Below, piece after piece: positions 4,812-29,568 of a stretch of 64,000 nt of DNA. The stretch is from Deltaproteobacteria bacterium (GTDB lineage Bacteria > Desulfobacterota > Syntrophia > Syntrophales > JACQWR01): contig JAPLJV010000004.1 in NCBI GenBank assembly GCA_026388415.1, positions 530 through 64,529 on the forward strand. The letters run 5' to 3'. The notes under the pieces were generated by a model. That model did no database searches and was not told the origin of the DNA. It worked only from the letters and a program-made list of their open reading frames with translations. Positions within the stretch are counted from its first letter, which is position 1; each line of letters begins with the position of its first letter. The translations under genes were made by a program, and so were the position numbers.

Positions 4812-4938
4812 GCTATATAGTTGCTTTTTATTGCTATTTTATAGAGATAATATCCTACCGCGCCATTAGTTTCATGTATCTATAGAAAACTACCTGTTAC
4901 CTTGCTTTCAACATTCATGGTTGCATGTCGGGATTAAA

Positions 4939-4955
4939 TGTGACATTTTGTCACA
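4939..4955. promoter_or_regulatory. perfect palindrome TGTGACA-TTT-TGTCACA upstream of the methyltransferase gene (candidate operator)
   Basis: Read directly from the sequence: a 7-bp inverted repeat with a 3-bp spacer, ending 19 nt before the ATG at 4975. Confidence 0.45.
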
Positions 4956-4974
4956 AATAATCCTTGAGGTTTTT

Positions 4975-6309
4975 ATGGATAAAAATCCCGTCCCACTTAT
5001 CAAAAAAGCAGTTGATGTACATGGTCTGGAGACTGTAGCCGACAATATGGGCAAATCTCCGCGAACCATCAGGCGATGGATGGCCTACGAGACGAAAATG
5101 TCGGTAAATGACTGCCGGGTTATGGAGCAGCTCTACCTTGATCTCTATGAAGCATCTCCGAAAAAAGCTGATTTTACGTTCATTGACCTGTTTGCCGGAA
5201 TAGGCGGGCTCCGGTTGGGGTTTGAAGATATCGGCGGACAATGCATTTTCACCAGTGAATGGGATGCATATTCACAGAAAACGTACCGGGCCAACTTCAA
5301 CGACAATCACGAACTTGCCGGTGATATAAACGACATCATGGGAGATATCAGAAAACATATTCCGGTCTCTCCCGATGTCTTGCTGGCCGGTTTTCCCTGT
5401 CAGCCTTTTTCCATTGCCGGCGTCAGCAAAAAGAATGCCTTGGGCCGTCCGCATGGTTTCGCATGCAAGGAGCAGGGCAACCTGTTTTTCCATATTGCCT
5501 CTATCCTTGCTGAATTGCGGCCGCCTGCCTTCCTGCTGGAAAATGTCAAGAACCTCGAACGGCATGACAAAGGGAACACTTTCCGGGTCATCATGGATAC
5601 CTTGGTGAATAAACTGGAATACAAGGTTCATTACAAGGTGATAGATGCAAAGGGGTTTGTTCCCCAACACCGGGAACGGATTTTTATTGTCGGATTCGAT
5701 GGCGATACCGGCTTTACCTGGGATGATCTCAACCTGCCGGACCCGAAAGCCCTGACCCTGAAAGACATCCTTCAGCCTGCCACGGAGGTTGACAGCAAGT
5801 ACATCCTGTCAGACCACCTGTGGCGCTATCTGCAAGACTATGCAGCAAAGCACAAGGCTGCCGGTCACGGGTTCGGTTTCGGGTTGACGGGAGAAAATGA
5901 AACTACCCGACCATTGACGCCACGATATTTCAAGGATGGCAGTGAAATACTTGTCTATCGAGGAACAGGAAAGAATCCGCGGCGTTTGACACCTCGCGAG
6001 TGTGCTCGGCTGATGGGATTCCGGGATGACTTCAAAATCCCGGTCTCAGATTTGCAAGCTTACAAACAATTCGGCAACGCATCCGTAGTGCCAGTTATTA
6101 GGGAGATTGCAAGAACGATGAATCCGCATATATTGGAAGCGGCGAAAAAAAACAGCGATAATTTGGCTATATTTTTGATGACAGACCAGCCCGAAACTTG
6201 TGGAATATGTGGCGCGCGAACTAACTGGATTGACTACAAAAACGGTCAACAACTGCATACTTGTCCAAGCTGCAATTACATCTATCTGCTGGAGGAATGT
6301 GATGAATAA
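4975..6309 (+). CDS. dcm: DNA (cytosine-5)-methyltransferase
   Basis: m5C MTase motifs in canonical order: FIDLFAGIGG (I), FPCQPFS (IV), ENVKNL (VI), QHRERIFIVGF (VIII), LTPRECARLMGF (IX), QFGNASVVPV (X). There is an extra N-terminal region of about 65 aa and a C-terminal CGIC...CPSC zinc-ribbon-like tail. ORF 4921.. trimmed to the ATG at 4975. Confidence 0.9.
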   Translation: MDKNPVPLIKKAVDVHGLETVADNMGKSPRTIRRWMAYETKMSVNDCRVMEQLYLDLYEASPKKADFTFIDLFAGIGGLRLGFEDIGGQCIFTSEWDAYSQKTYRANFNDNHELAGDINDIMGDIRKHIPVSPDVLLAGFPCQPFSIAGVSKKNALGRPHGFACKEQGNLFFHIASILAELRPPAFLLENVKNLERHDKGNTFRVIMDTLVNKLEYKVHYKVIDAKGFVPQHRERIFIVGFDGDTGFTWDDLNLPDPKALTLKDILQPATEVDSKYILSDHLWRYLQDYAAKHKAAGHGFGFGLTGENETTRPLTPRYFKDGSEILVYRGTGKNPRRLTPRECARLMGFRDDFKIPVSDLQAYKQFGNASVVPVIREIARTMNPHILEAAKKNSDNLAIFLMTDQPETCGICGARTNWIDYKNGQQLHTCPSCNYIYLLEECDE

Positions 6310-7054
6310 ATGGACTATTGAGGAACTGAAACTTGCGCTTGCGCTGTATTGCCAAATTCCCTTTGGCAAAATGCACTCCAGAAACCCCGATGTTATCAGA
6401 TTAGCAGATAAAATAGGCAGAACAGCTTCTGCTGTTGCCATGAAGTTGGTGAATTTTGCAAGTCTCGACCCAGAAATAACAGCGTCTGGCAGGACAGGTC
6501 TTGGAAATGCTTCTGCAACGGATAAAATGGTTTGGGAAACATTCCAAACTGATTGGGATAATGAGTTGCTAAAAGCAACAAAGGATCTTCCTGATTTTAA
6601 AATTCTTTCTTACGAGGATACTGAAGAACCGCTTGTTATTTCTGGCGACACGACTCGTAAGGCTGAAGTAGAAATCAGAATGAAGCAATCCATTTTCCGG
6701 CGCATGATTTTAAGCAGCTATGCTGGCGTATGTTGTATAAGTGGCCTTTCCGAGCCAAAACTACTCATTGCGAGCCATATTGTTCCGTGGAACAAGGACA
6801 GTGAAAATCGGCTGAATCCGCGCAATGGCTTATGCCTATCAGTTTTACATGATAAGGCGTTTGACAGAGGATTGATTACCGTTTTGCCTGATTATACTGT
6901 CGTTGTATCAAAGGAAATTACCAAATTAACAGACGATCGTTTTGCTCAAATCACACTTGTGGCAAATAACGGCCAAAAGATCAAAATGCCGGAAAAATTT
7001 CGTCCATTACCGGAATTTTTAACATGGCATAACCAGAATATGTTCAAACAATAA
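6302..7054 (+). CDS. HNH endonuclease (HNH_2-type, candidate restriction nuclease)
   Basis: ORF 6200.. trimmed to the ATG at 6302, which overlaps the dcm stop by 8 nt (ATGAATAA). C-terminal ASHIVPWNKDSENRLNPRNGLCLSVLHDKAFDRGLITV is the HNH_2 signature as I know it. Confidence 0.8.
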   Translation: MNKWTIEELKLALALYCQIPFGKMHSRNPDVIRLADKIGRTASAVAMKLVNFASLDPEITASGRTGLGNASATDKMVWETFQTDWDNELLKATKDLPDFKILSYEDTEEPLVISGDTTRKAEVEIRMKQSIFRRMILSSYAGVCCISGLSEPKLLIASHIVPWNKDSENRLNPRNGLCLSVLHDKAFDRGLITVLPDYTVVVSKEITKLTDDRFAQITLVANNGQKIKMPEKFRPLPEFLTWHNQNMFKQ

Positions 7055-7061
7055 CCCATGA

Positions 7062-7622
7062 CCGACTGGTAGTTATTACAAGGCAGCCGGTGTTGAAGCA
7101 TTCATCCGGAAATATGGCTACCCGGATATGACAGGGCAAGCCGGACGGGAAGACCGGCTGAATTTTGGCGGCATACATCGAATAGACAGTTATCACGAGC
7201 GAACAGGCTTGGCCATAATGCTGCTCGGTTATGACAGGGAGGCCGGCAAAATTCGTGACGCCACGGGCGGGATTGCACTGATGAATCTCAATGGTGAAGA
7301 GGCAGCCGTCTGGCGCTACACCGAAATTATGGCGCACTGGAATCGCAAGCATGCGCAGGCTGTCTACATTCCCAGCATGAGCAATAAAATTCCCGACCTC
7401 AGATACTGGTACGGCAATCTGGTACGATTGGGGATGGGAACAGATTTCCTGCTTTACCTCAAGGCAATATCGGCAGGACATATCTACTATGATCCGGGTA
7501 TTAAACTGGAAAATGCCTCGACGGCTCCCCATACAAAACAAAGAAGCCAGTTCCGCATCAGGTCGGTGTACGTGCCGTCACTGTATCACGAGATGAAGAC
7601 GGTTGATTTACTGGCTGAATAG
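7062..7622 (+). pseudogene. 5'-truncated MvaI/BcnI-family restriction endonuclease remnant
   Basis: HWNRKHAQAVYIPS, GTDFLLYLKAISAGHIYYDPGIKLE and KQRSQFRIRS resemble the C-terminal part of the MvaI/BcnI family (full length about 240 aa, from memory). The frame is open only from 7062, just after a TGA at 7059-7061. The first ATG is at 7128. The remnant begins 7 nt after the HNH stop. Confidence 0.55.
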
Positions 7623-13654: not shown

Positions 13655-15001
13655 CTAAACGCCCATTTTCAGGAACGGTGCCAGGTGAGCAGCTTCGCGC
13701 GGCCCGATCTTCACTTCCCATTCCGGTCCCAGTTCCTCTTCCAGATCGCCGCTGACGGCGGCCACAAATCCAGGAATGATGAGCTTCTTATGCTTGACTC
13801 GCTCGGTAATGCCACATTTCTTGACAAACTGGCCAATAGCATCACCGACAAATTTACCGGCAGCCCAGGCGGTAAGAACGGACAGTCCTTCCGTGTCCAT
13901 GACCAAAAGCCAGCTCGACACGCGGCTCGCCTCTATTTCACCGGACACGATAAAGTAGGTCAAAGCAAAATTGGTGGTAATCAGTACGGGGGAATCCTCC
14001 GTGGGATTGCCGATCGGATAGATGCCCTGCTTCATCATCATCGGACGTTGCGGGTCGGTGTAGATATTGAGTCGCGAGACTAAAAGGGGGAATAAGACTT
14101 CTCCCTGGAAGTCGGAAAGAACTATAATTCCAGCATATTTGGCTATGAACATGGCAGCTATGAGCGCCTCCTTAGCTGGATTGGCCGTCATTTCGCAGGG
14201 GAAGGTGATCGTGGGAAATCCCAGGGAGCGATTCTTCTGCACCAGGGCGGCGCGGCGTAAAAATACCTGATCCTCGAAGGCGCGACGCACTGTTCGGGCG
14301 CCGGTGTCCAGGACGATGTCCTTTATTCCGGCCGCACTCAGTTTATCCGTCAGAGCGCTCAGGCTATCCATATTATCGGCCCTGGCAGCCAGCGGACATT
14401 TGTATTCCCTGGCTAAGGCCGCCAGCGCATCGCTGTTGCCATCGGTAGCGGCGTAAATCAGCGGCAGGCGAGCTGCCGATACCTTGACCGCAGCCGTCAT
14501 GGCCTCCACATTGGTGCTCATGAGGACCAAAGCGGCATCCGTCTCATCCATGACCTTTTTGACCAGCGCTTCATACTTGCCGGCATCCCCGGATTCATTC
14601 TTGAGGGCGATCATCTCGGGACGCAGCACGAGTCCAATCCACTCATACCGCAATTCCTTAAAGCGTTTGATCCGACCCGCGACCTCGTCTGCGGCCATGG
14701 CATCGCTAATGAGAATAGCGAACCCCGGTTTGTTGACGAAGGTTTTTTCATGACGGAAAAGAACCGTTTCGCCGCCGATTTTCACCACGTTATCGCCCGG
14801 GCCAAAAGCAATCGGTCGAATGGGCGGCGCCGATGCTTCCGAAAGCTGAGCACTTGATTCCTCTGATATATGCGGGCATGAGGCTAATTCCGCCTTGGCT
14901 GCCGCCAGATTCATGGCAAAGGCCAGACAGGTAGGCACCCCGCATTCACCGCAGTTTGTTTTGGGCAATAACTTAAATATCTGAATCCCCGTCAGAGCCA
15001 T
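13655..15001 (-). CDS. acsC: corrinoid iron-sulfur protein large subunit
   Basis: The N-terminal LPKTNCGECGVPTCLAFAMNLA [4Fe-4S] motif is typical of AcsC/CdhE. 448 aa. Confidence 0.9.
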   Translation of the reverse strand: MALTGIQIFKLLPKTNCGECGVPTCLAFAMNLAAAKAELASCPHISEESSAQLSEASAPPIRPIAFGPGDNVVKIGGETVLFRHEKTFVNKPGFAILISDAMAADEVAGRIKRFKELRYEWIGLVLRPEMIALKNESGDAGKYEALVKKVMDETDAALVLMSTNVEAMTAAVKVSAARLPLIYAATDGNSDALAALAREYKCPLAARADNMDSLSALTDKLSAAGIKDIVLDTGARTVRRAFEDQVFLRRAALVQKNRSLGFPTITFPCEMTANPAKEALIAAMFIAKYAGIIVLSDFQGEVLFPLLVSRLNIYTDPQRPMMMKQGIYPIGNPTEDSPVLITTNFALTYFIVSGEIEASRVSSWLLVMDTEGLSVLTAWAAGKFVGDAIGQFVKKCGITERVKHKKLIIPGFVAAVSGDLEEELGPEWEVKIGPREAAHLAPFLKMGV

Positions 15002-15020
15002 TTCTACTCTCCTTCCAGCT

Positions 15021-15092
15021 TAAAAAAGTGCTGAGTTCCGAGTACTGAGTGCTGAGTACTTTCTTTTACTTAGTCCTCAGCACTTAGCACTC
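15021..15092 (-). repeat. intercistronic palindromic repeat, copy 1 (terminator-like hairpin plus U-tract, between acsB and acsC)
   Basis: Plus strand: TAAAAAAGTGCTGAGTTCCGAGTACTGAGTGCTGAGTACTTTCTTTTACTTAGTCCTCAGCACTTAGCACT. On the minus (mRNA) sense the AGTGCTAAGTGCTGAGG arm pairs with the downstream arm and is followed by UUUUUU. The element ends 19 nt before the acsC ATG. Confidence 0.8.
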
Positions 15093-15116
15093 TTCCTTTA
15101 TATGATCTATTAGACA

Positions 15117-17330
15117 CTATCCCAGTATTGATTCCATGGTAAGCGCCGGGTGGTTCTTTTCCGTCAAGAACGGCAGAATCTCATCTTCTGTGACCCCGAT
15201 CGTCTCATCGGCGATCATATCAACAAAATTGGCAATTCCCAGTTCGGCCGCCCGTTTCTCCAATCGCTCCCTCAGCTCCTCTTTGAGTATCTTGGGCATC
15301 CACACTAATCTTGGCAATCCTCCGTCGCCTGTCACCCACTTGCGCTGGGTGATATTGTACTTGCTGTGACCGAGGAATCCGGGCGTGACGCCGCCGCCGC
15401 CGGCTGTTCCGGCCAGGGTGGAGAACTTCATTCCGGAGGGGGTCATGCCGTTGAAATCACGGTTCACTGTCATGATGCCATTGCACATGGGCATAACGGC
15501 GGCGATACATTCGCAGCATCCGCAGGTGGTCATGGGATCGTTCATGAGGCTGTACATGCTCACCGCTTCGATCTTCTGCCGGGAAGCGTTGAACACAAAG
15601 TCGTTTACGCCCTTCCACTGGCCGTAGCGATCGTTAAGTGTTTCTCCCTTGGGTACAGGCTGGTTTGGTCCCGTAGGATTGATCTCGAAGGAGGCCTTGC
15701 AGTCCATCCAGTTATAGGCGCCGCAGAGCCCGGTCCGTTCGGGGCTGATAACGCAGACGTGGCTGGGGGCAAAGGACTGGCAGAGGGTGCAGGAGTAGAA
15801 AGTATCGGTGGTCTCGTCGGTCATGCCCTCCACCCGGGCGTCCCGCTTGGCGTAAACTGTCCGGGCCTTGGTCACAAGCTCGCTCACCTTTGCCTTTTCC
15901 GTATAGATCTTTACCTGCACCTTGTCGAAGATGGCTCCGAAATCCTGGTGGAACCTGGCATGAAGGATCCGGCCAATATCGGCCAGGCGGAACCCCTTAT
16001 CCACCGCGGCCTTGCCGACCCTCAACCAGGCAATATCCCGCTGACCAATATGCATGATACCTTGGGCATAATTGATCAGGTGGTGAATCTGACGTTCCAG
16101 GATAGGCTCGAAATCCTCCTGCATCTTCCGGCCCGCCACCTCCGCCACAATGGCTAAGGGGAGCTGGGCCGGCGGAGTGAGTTGATCCAGATCGGGACCG
16201 ATAACCTCTACCCTGCCGTCTTCGACTTCGGCGATGCTCATGGAGGTAACCCACTCCACAGCCTGGGTCCGGCCACCGCCGCACTCCAGATAGATATCCT
16301 CGCCGCGGACCCGTTCGCCTTCAAAGGCCGGTCCATAGGCGACCGGCACCGGGACATTGGACACCGTAACCTTCAGGCCCCTTACCTCGACGGACCGCTG
16401 GACTATCTGGTCGTGAGGGACATTGGCCACCACATGTTCATAGGTACACACGCCCGTGGGCAGGATTTCCGGGATATCCGTATCGGCGATGGTGGGGAAG
16501 CCCCAGTTCACGCAACCCGCAGCGTTGGCCGCCCACTCGGCGCCTACATCGCCCAGGGCGTTGACAAAGGCAAATATCCGGTCCTTATTGTAAAGAAGCA
16601 TCTTCTTGGCGTCGCCTGGTTGCACCCCGCCAAAGGCCATGGCAGCCCGGTTGGCAAAACCCAGGGCGAAGACGGCGGCGGAGATATCCGGTCCGAAGGG
16701 GACCAGACGGGTGTTCCAGCCGATCTGCACCCCTGCTTCGCGGAGCTGCTCCGAGAAGGTGGTGCCGTTCTGGTTGCCGGCCATGAATACATAGAGGTTC
16801 TTTTTCTGATATTCCTCGGCAATCATCTTTGCCGTTCCGGGATCGGGGGCGGCGCCCACAATGGCAGCAAAGCCCGGGGCGGAGCCGTCCACAAATTCGA
16901 TCCCCCGCTTCCGGAAGATCACGTCCCCGGCAGCGCCCAGCCAGATCTTGCCGGAGACCTCGTCAATCTCCTCGCTCGTGAGGTAAAAATCGGGATCCTC
17001 GATATAGCGAATGGCCTCCACTATTTCCTCGGCCAGGATGGCCGCCATGCCGGCATCCAGCAGGGGGCCAAGGTAGGGCAGGTGATAAACATTCTTTATG
17101 TGGGACGGGAGCAGACCCCGACAGATTTCCATAGGTTTCCTGGCATCGCCCAGGGTCTTGACCGGGATGCCCAGAATCGAATAGATAATGGGCAGGTAAT
17201 AGGCGGTATTGGGAAATTCCAGTTTCTGTTCAGGTCCGTATTTTTCCAAGGCCTTCTTCAATTTACCCTCGGCCTTGGAAACGATATTGTATGCGCCCTG
17301 AATGGCGGCAAAGGCAACTAATTTGGACAT
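15117..17330 (-). CDS. acsB: acetyl-CoA synthase (CODH/ACS alpha subunit)
   Basis: 737 aa. A-cluster ligand regions CTLCQSFAPSHVCVISPERTGLCGA and TTCGCCECI. N-terminus typical of bacterial AcsB. Confidence 0.95.
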   Translation of the reverse strand: MSKLVAFAAIQGAYNIVSKAEGKLKKALEKYGPEQKLEFPNTAYYLPIIYSILGIPVKTLGDARKPMEICRGLLPSHIKNVYHLPYLGPLLDAGMAAILAEEIVEAIRYIEDPDFYLTSEEIDEVSGKIWLGAAGDVIFRKRGIEFVDGSAPGFAAIVGAAPDPGTAKMIAEEYQKKNLYVFMAGNQNGTTFSEQLREAGVQIGWNTRLVPFGPDISAAVFALGFANRAAMAFGGVQPGDAKKMLLYNKDRIFAFVNALGDVGAEWAANAAGCVNWGFPTIADTDIPEILPTGVCTYEHVVANVPHDQIVQRSVEVRGLKVTVSNVPVPVAYGPAFEGERVRGEDIYLECGGGRTQAVEWVTSMSIAEVEDGRVEVIGPDLDQLTPPAQLPLAIVAEVAGRKMQEDFEPILERQIHHLINYAQGIMHIGQRDIAWLRVGKAAVDKGFRLADIGRILHARFHQDFGAIFDKVQVKIYTEKAKVSELVTKARTVYAKRDARVEGMTDETTDTFYSCTLCQSFAPSHVCVISPERTGLCGAYNWMDCKASFEINPTGPNQPVPKGETLNDRYGQWKGVNDFVFNASRQKIEAVSMYSLMNDPMTTCGCCECIAAVMPMCNGIMTVNRDFNGMTPSGMKFSTLAGTAGGGGVTPGFLGHSKYNITQRKWVTGDGGLPRLVWMPKILKEELRERLEKRAAELGIANFVDMIADETIGVTEDEILPFLTEKNHPALTMESILG

Positions 17331-17343
17331 GCTGCATCCTCCT

Positions 17344-17426
17344 TAAAAAAGTGCTGAGTTCCGAGTACTGAGTACTGAGTACTGAGTGCTGAGTACTTTC
17401 TTTTACTCAATCCTCAGCACTCAGCA
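17344..17426 (-). repeat. intercistronic palindromic repeat, copy 2 (longest copy, between acsA and acsB)
   Basis: Same core as copy 1, with extra GAGTACT heptamer units (CCGAGTACTGAGTACTGAGTACTGAGTGCTGAGTAC). It lies 7 nt after the acsA stop and 13 nt before the acsB ATG. Confidence 0.8.
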
Positions 17427-17433
17427 TTTGCAT

Positions 17434-19521
17434 TTACCCCGCGGCCAGCTTCTGCCGATCCGCCATATCCATCAGGACCCGTTCACGGGCCTTGTCAATA
17501 CCTAAGGCCTTGCGCTTCTTGTCAATGTGGGCCAGCATCCGGCGGGCCATTTCGTAGGGATCCGAAACCACATCCCATTTGCCGCCCACTATCTTTTCCA
17601 AACCATTGAAGAGGTAATCCTTGAATACAGGCGACCCATCAATGGGCAGACCGGCGCCGAAGATGACATATACACCGCTGCCGACAAAATAATGTCCGAT
17701 GGCCACCGCCTTTTCACTCATCCATTCGGGGGCGCACCCCGCCAACGGCAGATCGCTCAGATCGTTGCCCAGGCCTCCCGCAGCCACTACTGCGGAGGCA
17801 GCCGAGAGCATCCGGCTGTTATCCACGCAGGAACCCATGTGCAGAATCGGGGGGATGCCCACGGTCTCACAAACTTCCGCCAGACCGGGTCCACAATAGA
17901 CCATCGCCGCCTCGGGTGTCAAAAGGCCCGCCTTGCCGAAGGCCATGGCGGCACAGCCCGTAGTCAGGATAATTACGTCATTTTTGAGCAGCTCCTTAGC
18001 CAGAATCAAATGGGCGTTGTCGTGCATCGTCCGGGCATTGTTGCATCCCACAATGGCGGCGATACCCCGGATCCGTCCATTGATGATGTTGTCATTCAGG
18101 GGGACATAAGAGCCGCGGAAGGTTCCGCCCAGGTTATACTCTATGGCCTCGTAGCTGAAACCCACGACCATCTTCTCTTTCTCCCGGGGGATCATCGCTT
18201 CCCCGCGACGATTGGGGAAGTTGTCAATGGCAATCTTCACTATCTTTTTGGCATCTGCCAGGGCGTTATGTTCGTCAAACTCCACATGGATCGTTGCGCC
18301 AGAGGCGATTTTGCAGCGTGTATTGGTGGTGATAAGCTTCGTATGGTAGCAGGCGCAGACATTGGCCAGGCTTTCCATGATACACTGGACATCCACCGTC
18401 ATGGCATCCACCACGCCGGTAACGATAGCCAGTTCCTGCTGCAGGAAGTTCCCGGCAATGGGCAGTCCGTGGCGGAGCAGAATTTCATTGGCCGTACAGC
18501 ACATACCGGCCAGGACAATGCCTTTGGCGCCCTTGCTTTTCGCATAGTCAAGCATCTCAGGATCCCGTACGGCCGCCACGATCATCTCCGGCAGCAACGC
18601 CTCATGACCATGGACGATAATATTTACGTGGTCTTCCTTCAGGACACCGAGGTTGATCTCACCGAGAATGGGCTTGGGAGTGCCGAACATGACATCCTGC
18701 AAATCAGTGGCAATCATCGAACCGGCCCAGCCATCCGCCAGGGCGGCGCGGAAACACTGTTTGACAAGGTTCTGGTAATCCTGATCTACCCCCATATGGG
18801 TCCGGTGCATGATCTCGACGATCTCCCTGTCTATTCCCCGGGGGATAATGTCCAGTTTCTTCCATAGGTCATACCGCGCCTGCGGAGCGCGTTTGGCGTA
18901 ATAGATTTCACCCTCCTGTTTGCCCCATTCACCCAAGGCTTTTTCCCCGACCTCCACAGCGATTTCGTATTTATTCCGCGGTGTTGCCACACTATCAACT
19001 GTGACGCTGATGGCCACGCCGAAGTCCGGGGCAATCGCCCGCAGTTTTTTCTCATCCACAATGTCATAATCCGGCGATTCGCGACGGGCTGCCGCCAGGA
19101 ATACCGCGGCGACGGTGCGACCGTGGTCGGAATGAGAGGCCGAGCCGGCGGCCACCATCCGGGAAAAATTTCGGGCCGCAATTGTTTCCGGCGTGGCGCC
19201 GCATAGCCCCTGCCGGGTATCTTTTCCCTCTGTATTTTCCAAATCCCCCCTTAAACCCCCTTTGGTAAAGGGGGGGATGGGGGAGTTTTTGGTCAGGGGC
19301 AGGCGGCAGGGCCCCTGGGCGCATAGCTTGCAGCAGGTGCCCTGGGCGCCGATATTGCACGGTTTCATGTTTTCGGCACGATCAAATATGGTCTCCACCC
19401 CATCGGCCTGTGCCTTGTAGAGCATCTTGATGGTAGCCTGATCCACCGACTTTTCTTCCGGTTTAATCTGTTTCTTTTCCTTCTCCAGGGGCCTTATCTT
19501 GTCTTTTATCTCGTCCGACAT
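17434..19521 (-). CDS. acsA: Ni-Fe carbon monoxide dehydrogenase catalytic subunit (CODH/ACS beta)
   Basis: 695 aa. CNIGAQGTCCKLCAQGPCR (B/D-cluster Cys) and a CooS-family body. Carries an extra segment between PCR and GLCGA (see findings). Confidence 0.95.
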   Translation of the reverse strand: MSDEIKDKIRPLEKEKKQIKPEEKSVDQATIKMLYKAQADGVETIFDRAENMKPCNIGAQGTCCKLCAQGPCRLPLTKNSPIPPFTKGGLRGDLENTEGKDTRQGLCGATPETIAARNFSRMVAAGSASHSDHGRTVAAVFLAAARRESPDYDIVDEKKLRAIAPDFGVAISVTVDSVATPRNKYEIAVEVGEKALGEWGKQEGEIYYAKRAPQARYDLWKKLDIIPRGIDREIVEIMHRTHMGVDQDYQNLVKQCFRAALADGWAGSMIATDLQDVMFGTPKPILGEINLGVLKEDHVNIIVHGHEALLPEMIVAAVRDPEMLDYAKSKGAKGIVLAGMCCTANEILLRHGLPIAGNFLQQELAIVTGVVDAMTVDVQCIMESLANVCACYHTKLITTNTRCKIASGATIHVEFDEHNALADAKKIVKIAIDNFPNRRGEAMIPREKEKMVVGFSYEAIEYNLGGTFRGSYVPLNDNIINGRIRGIAAIVGCNNARTMHDNAHLILAKELLKNDVIILTTGCAAMAFGKAGLLTPEAAMVYCGPGLAEVCETVGIPPILHMGSCVDNSRMLSAASAVVAAGGLGNDLSDLPLAGCAPEWMSEKAVAIGHYFVGSGVYVIFGAGLPIDGSPVFKDYLFNGLEKIVGGKWDVVSDPYEMARRMLAHIDKKRKALGIDKARERVLMDMADRQKLAAG
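19243..19278. repeat. G/C-run palindromic element embedded in-frame in acsA
   Basis: ATCCCCCC TTAAA CCCCCTTT GGT AAAGGGGG GGAT. The inner hairpin CCCCCTTT/AAAGGGGG (19256-19274) and the outer ATCCCCCC/GGGGGGAT arms were read directly from the sequence. Confidence 0.6.
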
Positions 19522-19534
19522 CTACGCTCCTCCT

Positions 19535-19584
19535 TAAAAAAGTGCTGAGTACTTTCTTTTGCTCAGTCCTCAGCACTCAGCACT
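19535..19584 (-). repeat. intercistronic palindromic repeat, copy 3 (shortest copy, between acsD and acsA)
   Basis: TAAAAAAGTGCTGAGTACTTTCTTTTGCTCAGTCCTCAGCACTCAGCACT. On the mRNA sense AAGUGCUGAGU pairs with ACUCAGCACUU and is followed by UUUUAAGGAGG. The element ends 13 nt before the acsA ATG. Confidence 0.8.
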
Positions 19585-19623
19585 TCTCCTTATATTTCCA
19601 GGCCATGAGCCGTAAAGGGTTCT

Positions 19624-20568
19624 TTACGCGGTAAAATCATTGATCATCTCTCGCACCAGCCGTACCGCTTCGGGGTGTCTCATCACCAGCACATCCGCCC
19701 CGGCCAGAAGAAGCAGGGTCGCGGTCATGGCCTCCATGATGATGCCCCGTCGGGTAGCATCCCCGAGGTGGGGGGCGTCTTCTGTTTTGGCCTTGGCCTC
19801 TTTGGTCTTCCAGACCTCCCCGGCCAGGTTGCAGATGATGGGGAATTGCAGTCTCTCGTCCTGTTGGGTAAGAGCGGCCATACGATCGCGCTCCATTACC
19901 GAGTAGGTATATTCGATTCCGTAACCCAAGCCTCCGGTAGTTGGATCTACTATGAGTTGACGATCCGGCACGCCAAGATTGCCGAGAAGTATGTTGAGCT
20001 GCTTGGCCAGGTTAATATCTATCGGCGTGTTGGCAGAGACGGTATGCTTATAGGCAATCGCGCCGGCGCCGATCTGCTTGTAGTTGTCCGCTACCACCGG
20101 ACCGAGGACCAGATTCATCCCGTCGCTTGCTTCGGCAACTTTGCGTAGTAAATCAGAATCCTTATCGGAGTTACCGCTTCCATAAACAACGACCGGGACA
20201 TCAACCGCCGCGGCCACTTTTTTGGCTGTCTCCGTTGCCTCTTCGCTCGATTTGTTGAGACCATTAGGATCCGTACTGACGAGCTGCAAAGCTATCAGTT
20301 CAGCGCCGTAAACATCTACCGCCTTCTGCGCCCACGCTACCGGATCATTAATAACGTCGAGATAGGGCTCTAATGCCGCCGCCGCCCAATTATCAGGCGC
20401 TACATCGTAAACCTCGATGGCAATTCTCGGGGCGTGGGGCATCTCTCCTTCAAAAAGATGAAAGGGATAGGATGTTTCTCCCCCCACGGTCACGGCTCTG
20501 GCGCCTTTTCCCAATACTACTTCCTTGATCTTTCCCGTATAGACCGCTTTCGGTATTGTGAATGTCAT
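19624..20568 (-). CDS. acsD: corrinoid iron-sulfur protein small subunit
   Basis: 314 aa. The MTFTIPKAVYTGKIKEVVLGKG... N-terminus and TIM-barrel-like body are typical of AcsD/CdhD. Sits in the ACS context. Confidence 0.9.
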   Translation of the reverse strand: MTFTIPKAVYTGKIKEVVLGKGARAVTVGGETSYPFHLFEGEMPHAPRIAIEVYDVAPDNWAAAALEPYLDVINDPVAWAQKAVDVYGAELIALQLVSTDPNGLNKSSEEATETAKKVAAAVDVPVVVYGSGNSDKDSDLLRKVAEASDGMNLVLGPVVADNYKQIGAGAIAYKHTVSANTPIDINLAKQLNILLGNLGVPDRQLIVDPTTGGLGYGIEYTYSVMERDRMAALTQQDERLQFPIICNLAGEVWKTKEAKAKTEDAPHLGDATRRGIIMEAMTATLLLLAGADVLVMRHPEAVRLVREMINDFTA

Positions 20569-20572
20569 TATT

Positions 20573-21472
20573 CTACTCCTTTATGCCTGCTGCCAATTTG
20601 GCCGCCTTAACGGTATTCATCATGAGCATCGTAATGGTCATGGGACCAACTCCGCCTGGAACAGGGGTAATGGCGCCGGCCTTTTCTTTCACGGAGGCAA
20701 AATCAACATCGCCGCACAGCCTGGCCTTGCCTTCCGCAGTCATACCAATCCTGTTCACCCCCACATCAATCACAACGGCGCCTTCTTTCACCATATCAGC
20801 CGTGATGGCGTTGGGCTTGCCGGCCGCAACGATCAGGATGTCCGCCCGCCGGGTATGAAAGGCGATGTCTTTGGAACCGGTATGGCAGATGGTTACCGTG
20901 GCATTAGCCCCTTTCTGTTTCTGTAAAAGGATATTGGCGATGGGCTTGCCCACAATGTTCGAACGGCCGACGACAACCACTTCGGCGCCGCTCGTTTCTA
21001 CTCCCGTACGCATGAGCAACTGCTGAATCCCGGCTGGTGTGCAGGGAAGATAATCAGCCGCGCCGATCATTAGTTTACCCAAATTGACGGGATGAAATCC
21101 GTCCACATCCTTCCGGGGATCAATGGCACAGAGGACTCTTGTTTCATTGACATGCTCCGGCAAGGGGAGTTGCACTAATATACCGTGGATTTTCGGATCC
21201 TGATTATACTTCTCAATCAAGGCCAGTAAATCCGTTTCGGCGACATCCGGAGGCTGGTTGTCCTGCAAAGAGTAAAATCCCAGTTCCCTGGATGCCTTCT
21301 GTTTGGCGGTCACATAGCTGATGGAGGCGGGGTTTTGCCCCACCAGAATCGTTACCAGACCCGGAACGACATTACTTGCTTCCTTGAGCTGCGCCGTCTC
21401 TTCCTTGATCTCTTCCCTGATCTGCGCAGCAATCTCATTGCCGTTGATTAACTTTGCCGTCATATCCTGCAT
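20573..21472 (-). CDS. folD: bifunctional methylene-THF dehydrogenase / methenyl-THF cyclohydrolase
   Basis: 299 aa. LVTILVGQNPASISYV, GILVQLPLP and VVVGRSNIVGKP are FolD signatures. An alternative start is at 21463. Confidence 0.9.
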   Translation of the reverse strand: MQDMTAKLINGNEIAAQIREEIKEETAQLKEASNVVPGLVTILVGQNPASISYVTAKQKASRELGFYSLQDNQPPDVAETDLLALIEKYNQDPKIHGILVQLPLPEHVNETRVLCAIDPRKDVDGFHPVNLGKLMIGAADYLPCTPAGIQQLLMRTGVETSGAEVVVVGRSNIVGKPIANILLQKQKGANATVTICHTGSKDIAFHTRRADILIVAAGKPNAITADMVKEGAVVIDVGVNRIGMTAEGKARLCGDVDFASVKEKAGAITPVPGGVGPMTITMLMMNTVKAAKLAAGIKE

Positions 21473-21483
21473 TTCCTTCTCTA

Positions 21484-22230
21484 TTATAAAATATACTGAT
21501 CAAAAATGCGCCATGCCGCCTGTATCGCTGGAACGGACGCGGGAAGCTGAAAAGTAGGCGTCCCGCTATGGTCAAAGCGGCTGATTTCATCGTCAACAGG
21601 GATAACGCCTGCGAGCACCAGTCCCCTCCTGCCAATTTCTTCCCTGGTATCATCCTGCAGGGGGCCTGTCAGGCGATTCAAGACCAGTACATCTTTGGTG
21701 ATATTCAACTTGAGCTCTCTGATCAGATCGCGGATGCGGGCCGCCGTAATAATGCCGCGGCGGCTGGAATCGGACATGATAAAAAGCAGATCCACATCCT
21801 GAGTTGTCAGGCGGCTGAAATGCTCCATTCCCGCTTCGTTGTCAATAACAATATAAGGGTAGTTTGCCGTCAACATATCTATGTACTTCCTGGCAAGGGT
21901 ATTGGCAGCGCAGTAGCAACCCGCGCCTTCCGGTCGCCCCATTGCCAGCAGATCAAAACCCCTGGCTTCCGTCAAGGCTTCCTGAACCTTATATTCAAAC
22001 CACACATCTTTCGTCATGCCGGCGGGAACTTCCTCTTTCATCGCCTCGCGCATTTGGCCGATAGTGGTCTTGACGTCAATGCCCAGCACTTCATTAAGAT
22101 TGGCATTGGCGTCGGCATCCACCGCGAGGACAGGTCCTTTATTTTTTTCCAGGAGGTAACGAATGACCATGCCCGCAAAGGTAGTCTTGCCCGTTCCTCC
22201 TTTTCCCGATACTGCGATGGTAAAACTCAT
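21484..22230 (-). CDS. cooC: CODH/ACS nickel-insertion accessory ATPase (CooC/AcsF family)
   Basis: P-loop AVSGKGGTGKTT and a CxC motif (GAGCYCAAN). 248 aa. Confidence 0.85.
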   Translation of the reverse strand: MSFTIAVSGKGGTGKTTFAGMVIRYLLEKNKGPVLAVDADANANLNEVLGIDVKTTIGQMREAMKEEVPAGMTKDVWFEYKVQEALTEARGFDLLAMGRPEGAGCYCAANTLARKYIDMLTANYPYIVIDNEAGMEHFSRLTTQDVDLLFIMSDSSRRGIITAARIRDLIRELKLNITKDVLVLNRLTGPLQDDTREEIGRRGLVLAGVIPVDDEISRFDHSGTPTFQLPASVPAIQAAWRIFDQYIL

Positions 22231-22246
22231 GATCTATACCGCCCCT

Positions 22247-22317
22247 TAAAAAAGTGCTGAGTTCCGAGTACTGAGGACTGAGTACTTTCTATTACTCAGT
22301 CCTCAGCACTCAGCACT
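22247..22317 (-). repeat. intercistronic palindromic repeat, copy 4 (between the RACo gene and cooC)
   Basis: TAAAAAAGTGCTGAGTTCCGAGTACTGAGGACTGAGTACTTTCTATTACTCAGTCCTCAGCACTCAGCACT. The perfect 12-bp inner stem is GAGGACUGAGUA/UACUCAGUCCUC. The element ends 16 nt before the cooC ATG. Confidence 0.8.
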
Positions 22318-22347
22318 TCTCCTTAACAAAGTTCTGGATTCCGGTTT

Positions 22348-24351
22348 TCACCGGAATGACGATTTTTGGGCATTTTCCCTGCTCAAATGCAGCCGCTCCT
22401 GTACCTTCGGAAAGGCTGACGCATCAGTGTGGGGCAGAAACAGTGCCGCCATAAATTCATTCATGAAACCGCCGTGATTGCTCAATTCCAGATTGGTCAT
22501 CATGAGTGAGATCCTTTCCGCTTCCTTAAGCAGATCTTGCGAAAAGGAAAGCAGCCGGGCACCCAGCAGGGAACCGTTGCCGACAAAGATGAATTTGCTG
22601 ATCTCCAATTCCGGCAATAAACCTATAAAAATAGCCTTTTCCAGATCGAGATGTCGGCCAAAGCCGCCGGCTATAATGACCTGCTCCAGATCCTTGAAAC
22701 CCAAGCCCAGACTTTCCAGTAGTATCTTGCAACCGGCATATATGGAACCTTTGGTACGGATGAGGTTTTCGATGTCAATCTCCGTCAGGACAATATCTTC
22801 ATGAATTTGCGTTTGTTCTTTGTAGGCCAGCACGTATTCATAACCGTCCCCTCCCCTCCTTACCCGCCCGGTCGGAAGATCGAGGCGAAACTTGCCATCT
22901 TGATCAATAAGGCCTGCCTCCAGCAGTTCGGCTACAATATCAATCAAGCCTGATCCGCAGATGCCGAGTGGCCTGGTGCGGCCGATGGTCAAGATCATCG
23001 GTTCACAGGTGTGCGGGTTGATACTGACTTCTTCAATGGCGCCGCGGGTCGCCCGCATGCCGAATTTTATCCCTGCTCCCTCAAAGGCCGGTCCCGCTGA
23101 GCAGGAAACACTGGCCAGCCAATCCTTGTTTCCCAAAACAATCTCCCCGTTGGTGCCAATATCCATGTAAAGGGTCAAGGCTTCCCGCTGGAAAATGCCG
23201 GAGCCGAGTACGCCGGCGACTACGTCACCGCCTACATAACTGGCCACCGATGGAAAGATATACATATAAACATGTTCGCCGATATTGATGCCCAGATGGA
23301 CCGCTCGTACCGGGGGGATAAAATTGGCGGTGGGCACATAGGGGGCCTCCCGGATATACTTCGGGTCAACGCCCAACAGCAATTGCGTCATGGTCGTATT
23401 GCCGGCTACGACGAGATGGGAAATCAAGGCGCGATCAATGCCGCTCATTTTCAGAAGCTCTTCAATAATGCCATTGATCGTTCCCACCACCGTTTGCTGG
23501 AGCTTCATTAGACCGCCCGGTTTCTGAGAGTGGACGATCCGGGTGATAACGTCTTCTCCGAAATTTATCTGGGCATTATAATCAGAGGCCTCGGCGAGGG
23601 CAAAGAGAGTTGCGCCATTACAGTTACCATCGGGGCAAGCGACAACCTTGCATTCGTTAAGATTGAGGATCTGACCGAAAACAGTGGTGGTGCCGATGTC
23701 CAGTACGATCGAGTAATTCTGCTGGCAATTGTCTCCGGCCGCCACGTTGATTAATTTTGCTCCCTTTATGGTCAGCACCAGGGTAACGGTTACCTTCCAA
23801 TCCGCCTCCCGCAGCAGGCGGCTTAATTTCATAATTACCCGGAAGTCGGTGGAAATGCCGTTAATGCCATGCTGGCGATTGATGGCACGAATAAGGCGCG
23901 TCAGATCGCTGACATTATCGCCCAGAGAAGGAGGCTCTAATTCCACATATATTTTAAATACCGAAGGGTCAACATCCCAACCCTGCACTAATTGGTAAAT
24001 GTCTTTTGGAGAAAGAAGATAAGAGGCAAGGCCCCGATCGCCCTTGAGTGCCAGCGTAGATCTGTCAACCTGCGATTCCGGAGGGATTTCGATATCCACC
24101 GGAGCGATTACGGAAGTCAGGCAAGCCAGCCGATAGCCGTCTGCGTACTCAAATGAGGACAACTTGGCATGCAGCGGCGAGGCGACCAAACCGCCGCTAA
24201 TCCTGACCTTGCATTTGCCGCAGTTTGCATTGCCACCGCAGGAGGCATTGATATGTATCCCCGCGGCCATAGCCGCCTGAAGAAGGTTCTCTCCTTCATC
24301 AACGGAGATGGCTCTCTCGCTGGGATGGAATGTTACCTGATATTTCCCCAT
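22348..24351 (-). CDS. reductive activator of the corrinoid Fe-S protein (RACo-like; [2Fe-2S] ferredoxin domain plus ASKHA ATPase)
   Basis: ORF 22348..24405 trimmed to [25 protein letters not shown]-terminal [12 protein letters not shown] ferredoxin motif and a long ASKHA-like body. Alternative starts are at 24378 and 24405. Confidence 0.8.
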
Positions 24352-29492: not shown

Positions 29493-29507
29493 ATATTCAG
29501 ATATTCA

Positions 29508-29548
29508 GATGGGGAGGGGGCTGATTTGAAATCAGCCCCCTCCCCATC
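29508..29548. terminator. very stable GC-rich hairpin between the TPR/SLH gene and valS
   Basis: GATGGGGAGGGGGCTGATTT-G-AAATCAGCCCCCTCCCCATC, with perfect 20-nt arms. It lies 20 nt after the upstream stop (29569) and 15 nt before the valS ATG. No clean U-tract follows it on the minus sense. Confidence 0.4.
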
Positions 29549-29568
29549 TGTCCCCTCGGCAAAAAAGA

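Follow-up and report, generated by a model that had tools for sequence, protein, structure and literature searches.

Small non-coding repeats lying inside operons have been described in several bacteria. The intra-operon insertion of Chunjie, a transposable element of the miniature inverted-repeat type (MITE) from Geobacter uraniireducens, proved to be non-destructive (Chen et al. 2008, according to PMC10969869 and PMC3184786), while the long double-stranded RNA stems of Correia elements can serve as substrates of RNase III (PMC10969869). Repetitive extragenic palindromes (REPs) can stabilize the upstream mRNA against 3′ exonucleases, as in malE–malF (PMC5927463). Intergenic repeats with a 7-nt unit are over-represented in bacteria, a published but unexplained excess (Mrazek 2007, via PMC4692102 and PMC4679880), and arrays of one such unit, TAACTGA, are located right upstream of start codons, over the ribosome-binding site, with a patchy and unexplained cross-phylum distribution (PMC4679880). 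Here, we describe repeats of the DNA of a Syntrophales-like deltaproteobacterium (contig JAPLJV010000004.1), in which a 64-kb stretch, referred to as the window, carries four copies at the cistron junctions of the Wood–Ljungdahl operon encoding carbon monoxide dehydrogenase (CODH) and acetyl-CoA synthase (ACS). With a probability of about 0.7, we regard them as members of a low-copy, recently spreading REP/MITE-like family of 50–85 nt non-coding palindromes built of heptamers.

All coordinates are window positions, and all elements are read on the minus strand, which is the gene and mRNA sense. According to the Pfam assignments, the gene order is RACo (24405–22348), copy 4, cooC, folD, acsD (small subunit of the corrinoid iron–sulfur protein, CFeSP), copy 3, acsA (CODH), copy 2, acsB (ACS), copy 1, acsC (large CFeSP subunit), an acsE-like gene, and MTHFR, and the homologues of CooC and CheB placed the organism in the Syntrophales. 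An earlier note on this DNA had reported four palindromic repeats exactly at the junctions of this operon and no further copy in the 64 kb; both statements were borne out, the repeats lying on the minus strand at essentially the same positions between genes confirmed by Pfam, and an unfiltered search with a profile of nine copies detecting no fifth copy in the window. The elements and the additional segment beside copy 4 are as follows, SD denoting the Shine–Dalgarno sequence:

15022–15092, minus strand: copy 1, 71 nt, in the spacer between the acsB stop and the acsC SD
17345–17429, minus strand: copy 2, 85 nt, begins 3 nt past the acsA stop and ends at the acsB SD; the richest in heptamers
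19536–19585, minus strand: copy 3, 50 nt, within the acsA SD; the shortest, without three right-arm heptamers
22248–22318, minus strand: copy 4, 71 nt, ahead of the cooC SD; the most perfect hairpin, −46.3 kcal/mol
22325–22377, minus strand: 53-nt extra segment co-inserted 5′ of copy 4, with a small hairpin (ATTCCGGTGAAAACCGGAAT); missing in all relatives

The shared blocks AGTGCTGAGGAYTRAG and ACTCAGCACTTTTTTAAG occur four times each in the window, compared with the 0.05–0.08 occurrences expected from shuffled sequences, and the four elements rank among its strongest inverted repeats. Every known copy is operon-internal.

Comparison with relatives (loci and contigs retrieved from other assemblies, labeled L0xx) showed that the elements were inserted into the stop-to-SD spacers of an already functional operon. 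In L056 and L057, which share 97% DNA identity with the window in acsA/acsB, the acsB–acsC junction is empty (CATGTAAAG joined directly to CTGGAAGGAG), and the insert of the window relative to these alleles comprises 77 nt (15019–15095), that is, 11 × 7. The acsD–acsA junction of L057 is empty, too (ATATAAGGAG joined to GAGCATAGATG); here the window insert covers 19533–19588 (56 nt, 8 × 7) with TAAGGAG on each side. In L065 and L066 (approximately 96% DNA identity in the RACo–valS region), the RACo–cooC junction is empty (TTGAGCAGG joined to AAGGCGAGATAGATCATG) and the RACo stop stands 3 nt before the cooC ATG, while the window contains the 71-nt element plus the 53 nt supplying a new RACo C-terminus and stop codon. 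The 22325–22377 insert changes the RACo C-terminus from …SRKAR*. This segment looks like a flank carried from a donor junction, and no match to it was found in any retrieved locus. In the more distant L051 (92% DNA identity), L052 (87%), and L053–L055 (AcsB approximately 80% identical), none of the four junctions has the element, as was also found by the profile search. The sole junction occupied in the 97% relatives is acsA–acsB, where the alleles are divergent: L057 has a shortened left arm, three ACTCAGC units, and a weak hairpin (z = −1.6), L056 has the right arm only, with T5 and no hairpin (z = +1.1 relative to shuffled sequences), and L051 and L052 contain unrelated sequence in place of the element. 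Copies 1, 3, and 4 are thus insertions younger than approximately 3–4% sequence divergence, and copy 2 occupies the oldest site of the operon, where decay has begun in some strains. The mark of MITE mobility, a site filled in one close relative and empty in another, was found for these three insertions and for a chemotaxis locus described below.

The window comes from an NCBI metagenome-assembled genome (MAG) and short-read graphs break at the elements, as would be seen if repeats had been misplaced or collapsed during assembly or binning. However, the exact element ends are joined to the same flanks in Logan contigs from at least seven runs, and full elements are present within independent ENA and JGI contigs at the chemotaxis locus and at acsA–acsB, which makes such an artefact extremely unlikely. 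The Logan contigs encoding identical CooC (L044–L050, from at least seven runs) have their starts within copy 4, and L044 and L045, the longest two, end within copy 3. Since contigs from this many runs end in the repeats, the filled strain exists in several samples.

A metagenome scan with a degenerate central pattern found the element also between cheX and cheB (L058); thus, the copies are not confined to Wood–Ljungdahl genes, a restriction that the earlier note had put forward for consideration. The scan yielded this one true extra locus and one chance match (L059), with partial coverage, as the L057 contig matches the pattern and was not among the returns. The cheX–cheB site is filled in lineages with 100% and 96% identical CheB, the copy of the latter having further substitutions, and the copies of L058 and L060 differ by one heptamer. 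In a 94% relative the site is empty, with a 22-nt spacer instead, and the difference amounts to 49 nt (7 × 7). L060 and L065 come from one sample, and L058 and L066 from one metagenome; therefore, a strain with an empty RACo–cooC junction already carried the che copy. No extra copies were found in approximately 83 kb of unselected same-species DNA (the rest of the window, of L060, and of L065), and a viral scan was empty. By a Poisson argument from these 83 kb, the family would have roughly tens of copies per genome at most, and hundreds of randomly located copies are unlikely. The hundreds of 20–40 nt copies and the RAYT gene characteristic of REP/REPIN systems were not observed within the DNA examined.

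The internal structure of the elements is governed by a 7-nt period, which Tandem Repeats Finder detected in all four copies with 2.3–6.9 repeat units. The unit is a near-palindromic hexamer, AGYRCT (AGTGCT, AGCACT, or AGTACT), plus one nucleotide, which is G in the left arm (GAGTGCT, GAGGACT) and C in the right arm (ACTCAGC, ACTCAGT); consequently, the arrays can pair in several registers. Copy 2, for example, consists of AAATGCT GAGTGCT GAGGATT GAGTAAA AGAAAGT ACTCAGC followed by ACTCAGT ACTCAGT ACTCAGT ACTCGGA ACTCAGC ACTTTTT T. A fixed loop, GAGTAAAAGAAAGT, lies between the arms, and the element ends in …CTCAGCACTTTTTT. Terminal inverted repeats (GAGAAGTGCTGAG … CTCAGCACTTTTTT) are present in copies 3 and 4 and in the che copies, though imperfect (G/A vs. 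T). The copies are recent paralogues differing by register shifts of whole heptamers: copy 3 equals copy 1 less three right-arm units, and copy 2 equals copy 1 plus two. Heptamer number also changes in 7-nt steps between alleles, which differ by one to four heptamers, as is typical of heptamer simple repeats with their tandem units and copy-number polymorphism; the length differences (77, 56, 28, 49, and 7 nt) are all multiples of 7. The polymorphism of heptamer number that had been suspected from the window was, accordingly, found at acsA–acsB and cheX–cheB.

The period-7 arrays of all four copies and the allele lengths differing by multiples of 7 would also be produced if the repeats had grown in situ at each junction by polymerase slippage, with no mobility, and slippage was proposed as the cause of the excess of heptamer simple repeats in many bacterial genomes (Mrazek 2007, quoted in PMC4692102 and PMC4679880). 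However, the non-repetitive centre GAGGAYTRAGYAAWAGAAAGTACTCAG and both termini are common to five unlinked sites. Slippage cannot create such a shared core independently at each site and explains only the copy-number variation, hence it is very unlikely as the origin of the elements.

The position of the elements relative to the SD sites is similarly constant. The right end, …CACTTTTTT, joins the AAG(G) of the downstream SD in all five loci (TTTTAT in one lineage), giving the consensus …CACTTTT(T/A)T ahead of the AAG(G) with which the following SD begins, and the orientation is the gene sense at each of the five. As the T-run stands against AAG(G), a usable SD was kept or rebuilt and the insertion was tolerated by the operon. 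The translation initiation regions of the four downstream genes are the following:

15002–15021, minus strand: acsC leader, AAGCTGGAAGGAGAGTAGAA, consisting of AAG against the T-run and the native acsC SD (GGAAGGAG), up to the ATG at 15001
17331–17344, minus strand: acsB SD, AAGGAGGATGCAGC, directly against the T-run
19522–19535, minus strand: acsA SD, AAGGAGGAGCGTAG, directly against the T-run; regenerated through the insertion
22231–22247, minus strand: SD-like AAGGGG of cooC, AAGGGGCGGTATAGATC, against the T-run

AAGGAGG or AAGGGG directly abuts the T-run in copies 2, 3, and 4, in agreement with the three SD-abutting copies noticed before, and in copy 1 the SD lies 7 nt beyond it. The T-run and the start codon were measured to be 14, 14, 17, and 20 nt apart, a distance formerly given as 13–19 nt. 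The left boundary, on the other hand, is variable: it is AAGGAG at copies 1, 3, and 4, ATG at copy 2, and TAG, the stop codon of cheX, at the che locus, and at copy 4 the foreign 53 nt accompany it. AAG occurs on both sides of copies 1, 3, and 4, and copy 3 has what looks like a 7-bp TAAGGAG duplication. The left "copy" of AAG at copies 1 and 4 differs from the empty-site sequence, and copy 2 and the che copies have no left AAG.

Two routes could have brought the elements to these positions. In the first, a trans-acting transposase with AAG as target would generate a 3-bp duplication in the manner of MITEs, and the element would then start with GAGAAGTGCT. In the second, the elements would spread by copy-and-paste via the short AAGGAG homologies flanking the donor and recipient sites; such copying would account for the placement at SDs, the uniform sense orientation, the left boundary that varies, the clustering within a single operon, and the carried-over flank at copy 4. 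A one-ended mechanism like that of IS200/IS605 or IS91 was also considered because the right end is invariant while the left end varies. In this case, the flanking tetranucleotides proved to be inconsistent, and the GC skew was confounded with gene orientation.

The predicted RNA folds of copies 1–4 have energies of −31.9, −34.1, −25.8, and −46.3 kcal/mol with z-scores of −4.8, −4.2, −5.3, and −8.6 relative to dinucleotide shuffles, thus all four fold better than the shuffled controls, as the hairpins drawn from the window sequence should (z from −4.2 to −8.6). The earlier note had described each hairpin as immediately followed by a U-tract. This arrangement, the hallmark of intrinsic terminators, was confirmed for copies 2, 3, and 4, where the hairpin abuts U6, but for copy 1 it depends on the context: an outer stem abutting the T-run is preferred in a shorter context, while in the 91-nt context the hairpin of minimum energy stops 17 nt short of the T-run. 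In copies 3 and 4, the U6 run itself is paired with the upstream GGAGAA via G–U pairs. The stems of 17–30 bp, with loops of 8–18 nt, are atypically long for intrinsic terminators, and a simple consensus terminator scan flagged none of the four copies. Likewise, a consensus promoter scan placed no promoter inside the elements, and Rfam 15 gave no gathering-threshold match over them, only sub-threshold microRNA-hairpin noise. No consistent asymmetry was found between sense and antisense folding energies, a comparison that is either uninformative or negative; as the palindrome exists at the DNA level, no RNA-strand asymmetry is expected from it, and it bears no sign of selection for RNA on one strand.

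In the mRNA, the long hairpins with U6 would probably act as leaky terminators, as barriers against 3′-to-5′ exonucleases, or as RNase III sites, a 25–30 bp stem being a plausible substrate of the latter enzyme. Strong termination is implausible, because acsA, acsB, acsC, and acsE belong to the core of the pathway and at least seven runs contain the filled strain. Since the SD is preserved, these RNA effects would be tolerated side effects, with no conserved regulatory design behind them.

The inference preferred in the earlier note was, by contrast, that the hairpins are adaptive: intra-operon attenuators or mRNA-stabilizing structures that tune the amounts of CooC, CODH, ACS, and CFeSP and thereby set the stoichiometry of the complex. 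Protective intergenic hairpins are indeed documented in differential operon decay (malE–malF; PMC5927463). Three of the four copies have a strong hairpin directly followed by U6 when folded at minimum energy, and the sense orientation at all five loci would fit with this function. The distribution of the copies could be cited in its favor as well. The 52-kb co-directional gene run contains 41 junctions, approximately 19 of them with spacers of at least 14 nt, and of the five such spacers that lie between RACo and acsE, four hold an element, while the other approximately 15 usable junctions have none, a clear clustering by a post hoc test. Moreover, a distant relative independently has other heptamer hairpins with T-runs and SDs at its Wood–Ljungdahl junctions. 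Nevertheless, same-species relatives run the same operon without the elements, the L056 allele of acsA–acsB forms no hairpin (z = +1.1) and that of L057 only a weak one (z = −1.6), and the same element is present in a chemotaxis operon. CODH/ACS is an α2β2 complex and CFeSP is a heterodimer; the elements separate the genes of these 1:1 partners (acsA from acsB, and acsD from acsC), thus cumulative attenuation would unbalance the complexes. The missing strand asymmetry in folding energy and the negative terminator scan also speak against it. Consequently, we consider adaptive attenuation or stabilization unlikely, mainly owing to the relatives without elements, the hairpin-less allele, the 1:1 partners, and the che copy. 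The empty and filled sites, the che locus, and the SD-adjacent ends support the other suggestion of the same note, a REP/MITE-like element with SD regions as its targets.

Related arrays occur far beyond this lineage. Scanning reference genomes with the invariant 18-mer returned 43 loci in other phyla. ACTCAGC/ACTCAGT arrays ending in ACTTTTTTAAG were found in many Nostocales (approximately 17 loci), in three Acidobacteria contigs (L034, L035, and L009), and in a Clostridia MAG, with arrays positioned as follows:

L034, 1356–1463: heptamer array
L035, 719–787: heptamer array
L009, 3008–3048: heptamer array
L010, 5159–5191: heptamer array

The array of L009 is followed by AAGGAG and ATG, in L034 a full inverted array fills the stop-to-start spacer in reverse orientation, and L035 matches both arms of the window element almost base for base. 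Horizontal transfer, mis-binning, and convergence are the candidate readings of these matches. In L053–L055, other heptamer arrays or hairpins stand at almost every junction of their own Wood–Ljungdahl operon, built of AAATAGC/GCTATGC, GTGTCAG (at two junctions), or CGCAAAG/CTTTGCG units, and several of them display the architecture A-run, hairpin, T-run, and SD. Copy number is polymorphic here, too: AAATAGC is repeated four times in L053 and five times in L054, and the array downstream of cooC occurs with and without T11. One array of these loci holds two TGATAAC units, which correspond to the TAACTGA unit described in Beggiatoaceae.

Recurrence of such units raises the question of whether the 7-nt-spaced CTGA/TCAG motifs beside the ribosome-binding site form a platform read by an RNA- or DNA-binding regulator. 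A binding role was proposed for the TAACTGA repeats of Beggiatoaceae (PMC4679880) and for the paired heptamer sites of Geobacter metallireducens (PMC2700814). Heptamers with a CTGA core recur, as GTGCTGA, GGACTGA, and GTACTGA in our elements and as MTYCTGA in G. metallireducens (PMC2700814), in Beggiatoaceae, cyanobacteria, and Bacteroidetes TAACTGA stands directly upstream of start codons (PMC4679880), and the elements of the window are constantly placed immediately 5′ of the SD. The occurrence of these heptamers with the ACTTTTTTAAG end in Nostocales and Acidobacteria points in this direction as well. However, the analysis identified no candidate for a binding protein, the alleles vary freely in heptamer number and arm content, one of them lacking an arm, the sites are missing altogether in relatives, and the arrays of L053–L055 are built of unrelated units. 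Considering these data, a binding platform seems quite unlikely. Another, wider interpretation is that the element is one member of a cross-phylum class of hairpins with 7-nt units (a palindromic hexamer plus 1 nt, often with a CTGA/TCAG core) that colonizes stop-to-SD spacers and would spread via dedicated machinery or by copying through SD microhomology; we regard this as speculative. If it were true, a single cross-phylum process would explain the long-noted excess of intergenic heptamer repeats in bacteria, and it could be tested on the empty and filled sites found at strain level.

Several observations weigh against a recently spreading REP/MITE-like family. No transposase or RAYT-like gene was recognized by Pfam among the approximately 50 open reading frames of the window. 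The target-site duplication is ambiguous, as it could be AAG, apparently TAAGGAG at copy 3, or none, and the acsA–acsB and cheX–cheB sites look like replacement of an ancestral spacer and not like simple insertion. The copy number, which looks low, was estimated from approximately 83 kb and the metagenome scan. Four of the five known copies lie within one 7.3-kb operon, the hairpin with U6 falls in the mRNA orientation in all five, and unrelated hairpins have accumulated independently at the same kind of junction in L053–L055; the clustering, the sense orientation, and the L053–L055 hairpins could reflect selection for function.

The case is ordinary in kind, but it provides clean evidence for hairpins of heptamers moving as units and landing at ribosome-binding sites. 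Such repeats have been known for decades in cyanobacteria, Xanthomonas, Geobacter, and Beggiatoaceae, and the empty and filled alleles found here are unusually clean for them. They show that a terminator-like hairpin can enter an essential operon of central metabolism repeatedly, exactly at the ribosome-binding sites, without destroying the operon. Well-placed intra-operon hairpins should therefore be compared with close relatives before they are read as evolved regulators. If the elements alter transcript ends, the filled and empty strains provide a natural experiment on the stoichiometry of the Wood–Ljungdahl operon.

Some further features of the window and its relatives were also recorded. 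Gene content varies among the relatives at 20573–21472 and upstream of RACo: folD is located between cooC and acsD in the window and L051, not in L052, and upstream of RACo, FTHFS is present in L051 and coaX–birA–nadC–valS in the window and L065. The acsA gene contains a 48-nt in-frame insertion (19240–19287, minus strand; AACTCCCCCATCCCCCCCTTTACCAAAGGGGGTTTAAGGGGGGATTTG), a C-run/G-run palindrome that adds 16 residues (NSPIPPFTKGGLRGDL) to CODH just past the CxxCxxGPCR motif. It is missing in L057 (97%) and L051, where acsA encodes 679 aa compared with 695 aa in the window, and no second copy of it was found in the window. A perfect palindrome with 22-bp arms (CAGATGGGGAGGGGGCTGATTT/AAATCAGCCCCCTCCCCATCTG) lies at 29506–29550 between a TPR gene and valS; this spacer folds with −46.5 kcal/mol and no U-tract follows. 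L053 has a comparable palindrome of G-run and C-run that takes up its acsB–acsC junction, and the two may belong to a second repeat family. An abiF RNA (Rfam RF03085, 47.2 bits compared with the gathering score of 37) was detected at 1005–1041 on the plus strand, abutting the start of the minus-strand coaE-like gene (229–1005) and upstream of a PIN-domain gene (1588–1992), and a restriction–modification-like cluster at 4921–7622 (plus strand) encodes a C-5 cytosine methylase, an HNH endonuclease-domain protein, and an MvaI/BcnI-family fragment.

Compared with the known systems, the elements resemble MITEs such as Chunjie and the Correia/NEMIS elements of Neisseria in their small size, their non-coding nature, their terminal inverted repeats, and their stable hairpin, and also in their variable length and in the filled and empty sites between close relatives. 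They differ from Chunjie and Correia by their length (50–85 nt compared with 100–235 nt) and by a body consisting almost entirely of 7-nt units. Their target-site duplication is ambiguous (AAG or none), unlike the 9 bp of Chunjie and the TA of Correia, and they have an apparently low copy number, a strictly SD-adjacent location, and no known cognate insertion sequence. With REP/BIME and REPIN sequences (PMC3116915; the malE–malF REP of Escherichia coli), they share the short imperfect palindromes in intra-operon intergenic spacers; however, REPs are 20–40 nt long, RAYT-associated, and typically present in hundreds of copies (PMC3116915), while the elements consist of heptamers and finish in T6, the window showed no RAYT, and their copy number looks like a handful to tens. 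SPRITE is similar as a dispersed repeat whose transcript mimics a terminator with hairpin and U-tract, but it is approximately 105 nt long, belongs to a Gram-positive lineage, and is unrelated in sequence, and the elements described here lie immediately 5′ of SDs, inside operons. Finally, the heptamer repeats available for comparison are the short tandemly repeated repetitive sequences (STRRs) of cyanobacteria, GGGAATC and GGGGAYT of Xanthomonas and Nostoc (PMC4692102), TAACTGA of Beggiatoaceae (PMC4679880), and MTYCTGA (PMC2700814). Like these STRRs and long simple sequence repeats (LSSRs), the elements have an intergenic 7-nt unit whose copy number varies between close relatives, often in inverted, hairpin-forming arrays with a patchy occurrence across phyla. 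Unlike heptamer LSSRs, however, the arrays belong here to a defined element, whose non-repetitive loop and ends are fixed and which appears as a unit at new sites, and its mobility can thus be demonstrated directly from the empty alleles.

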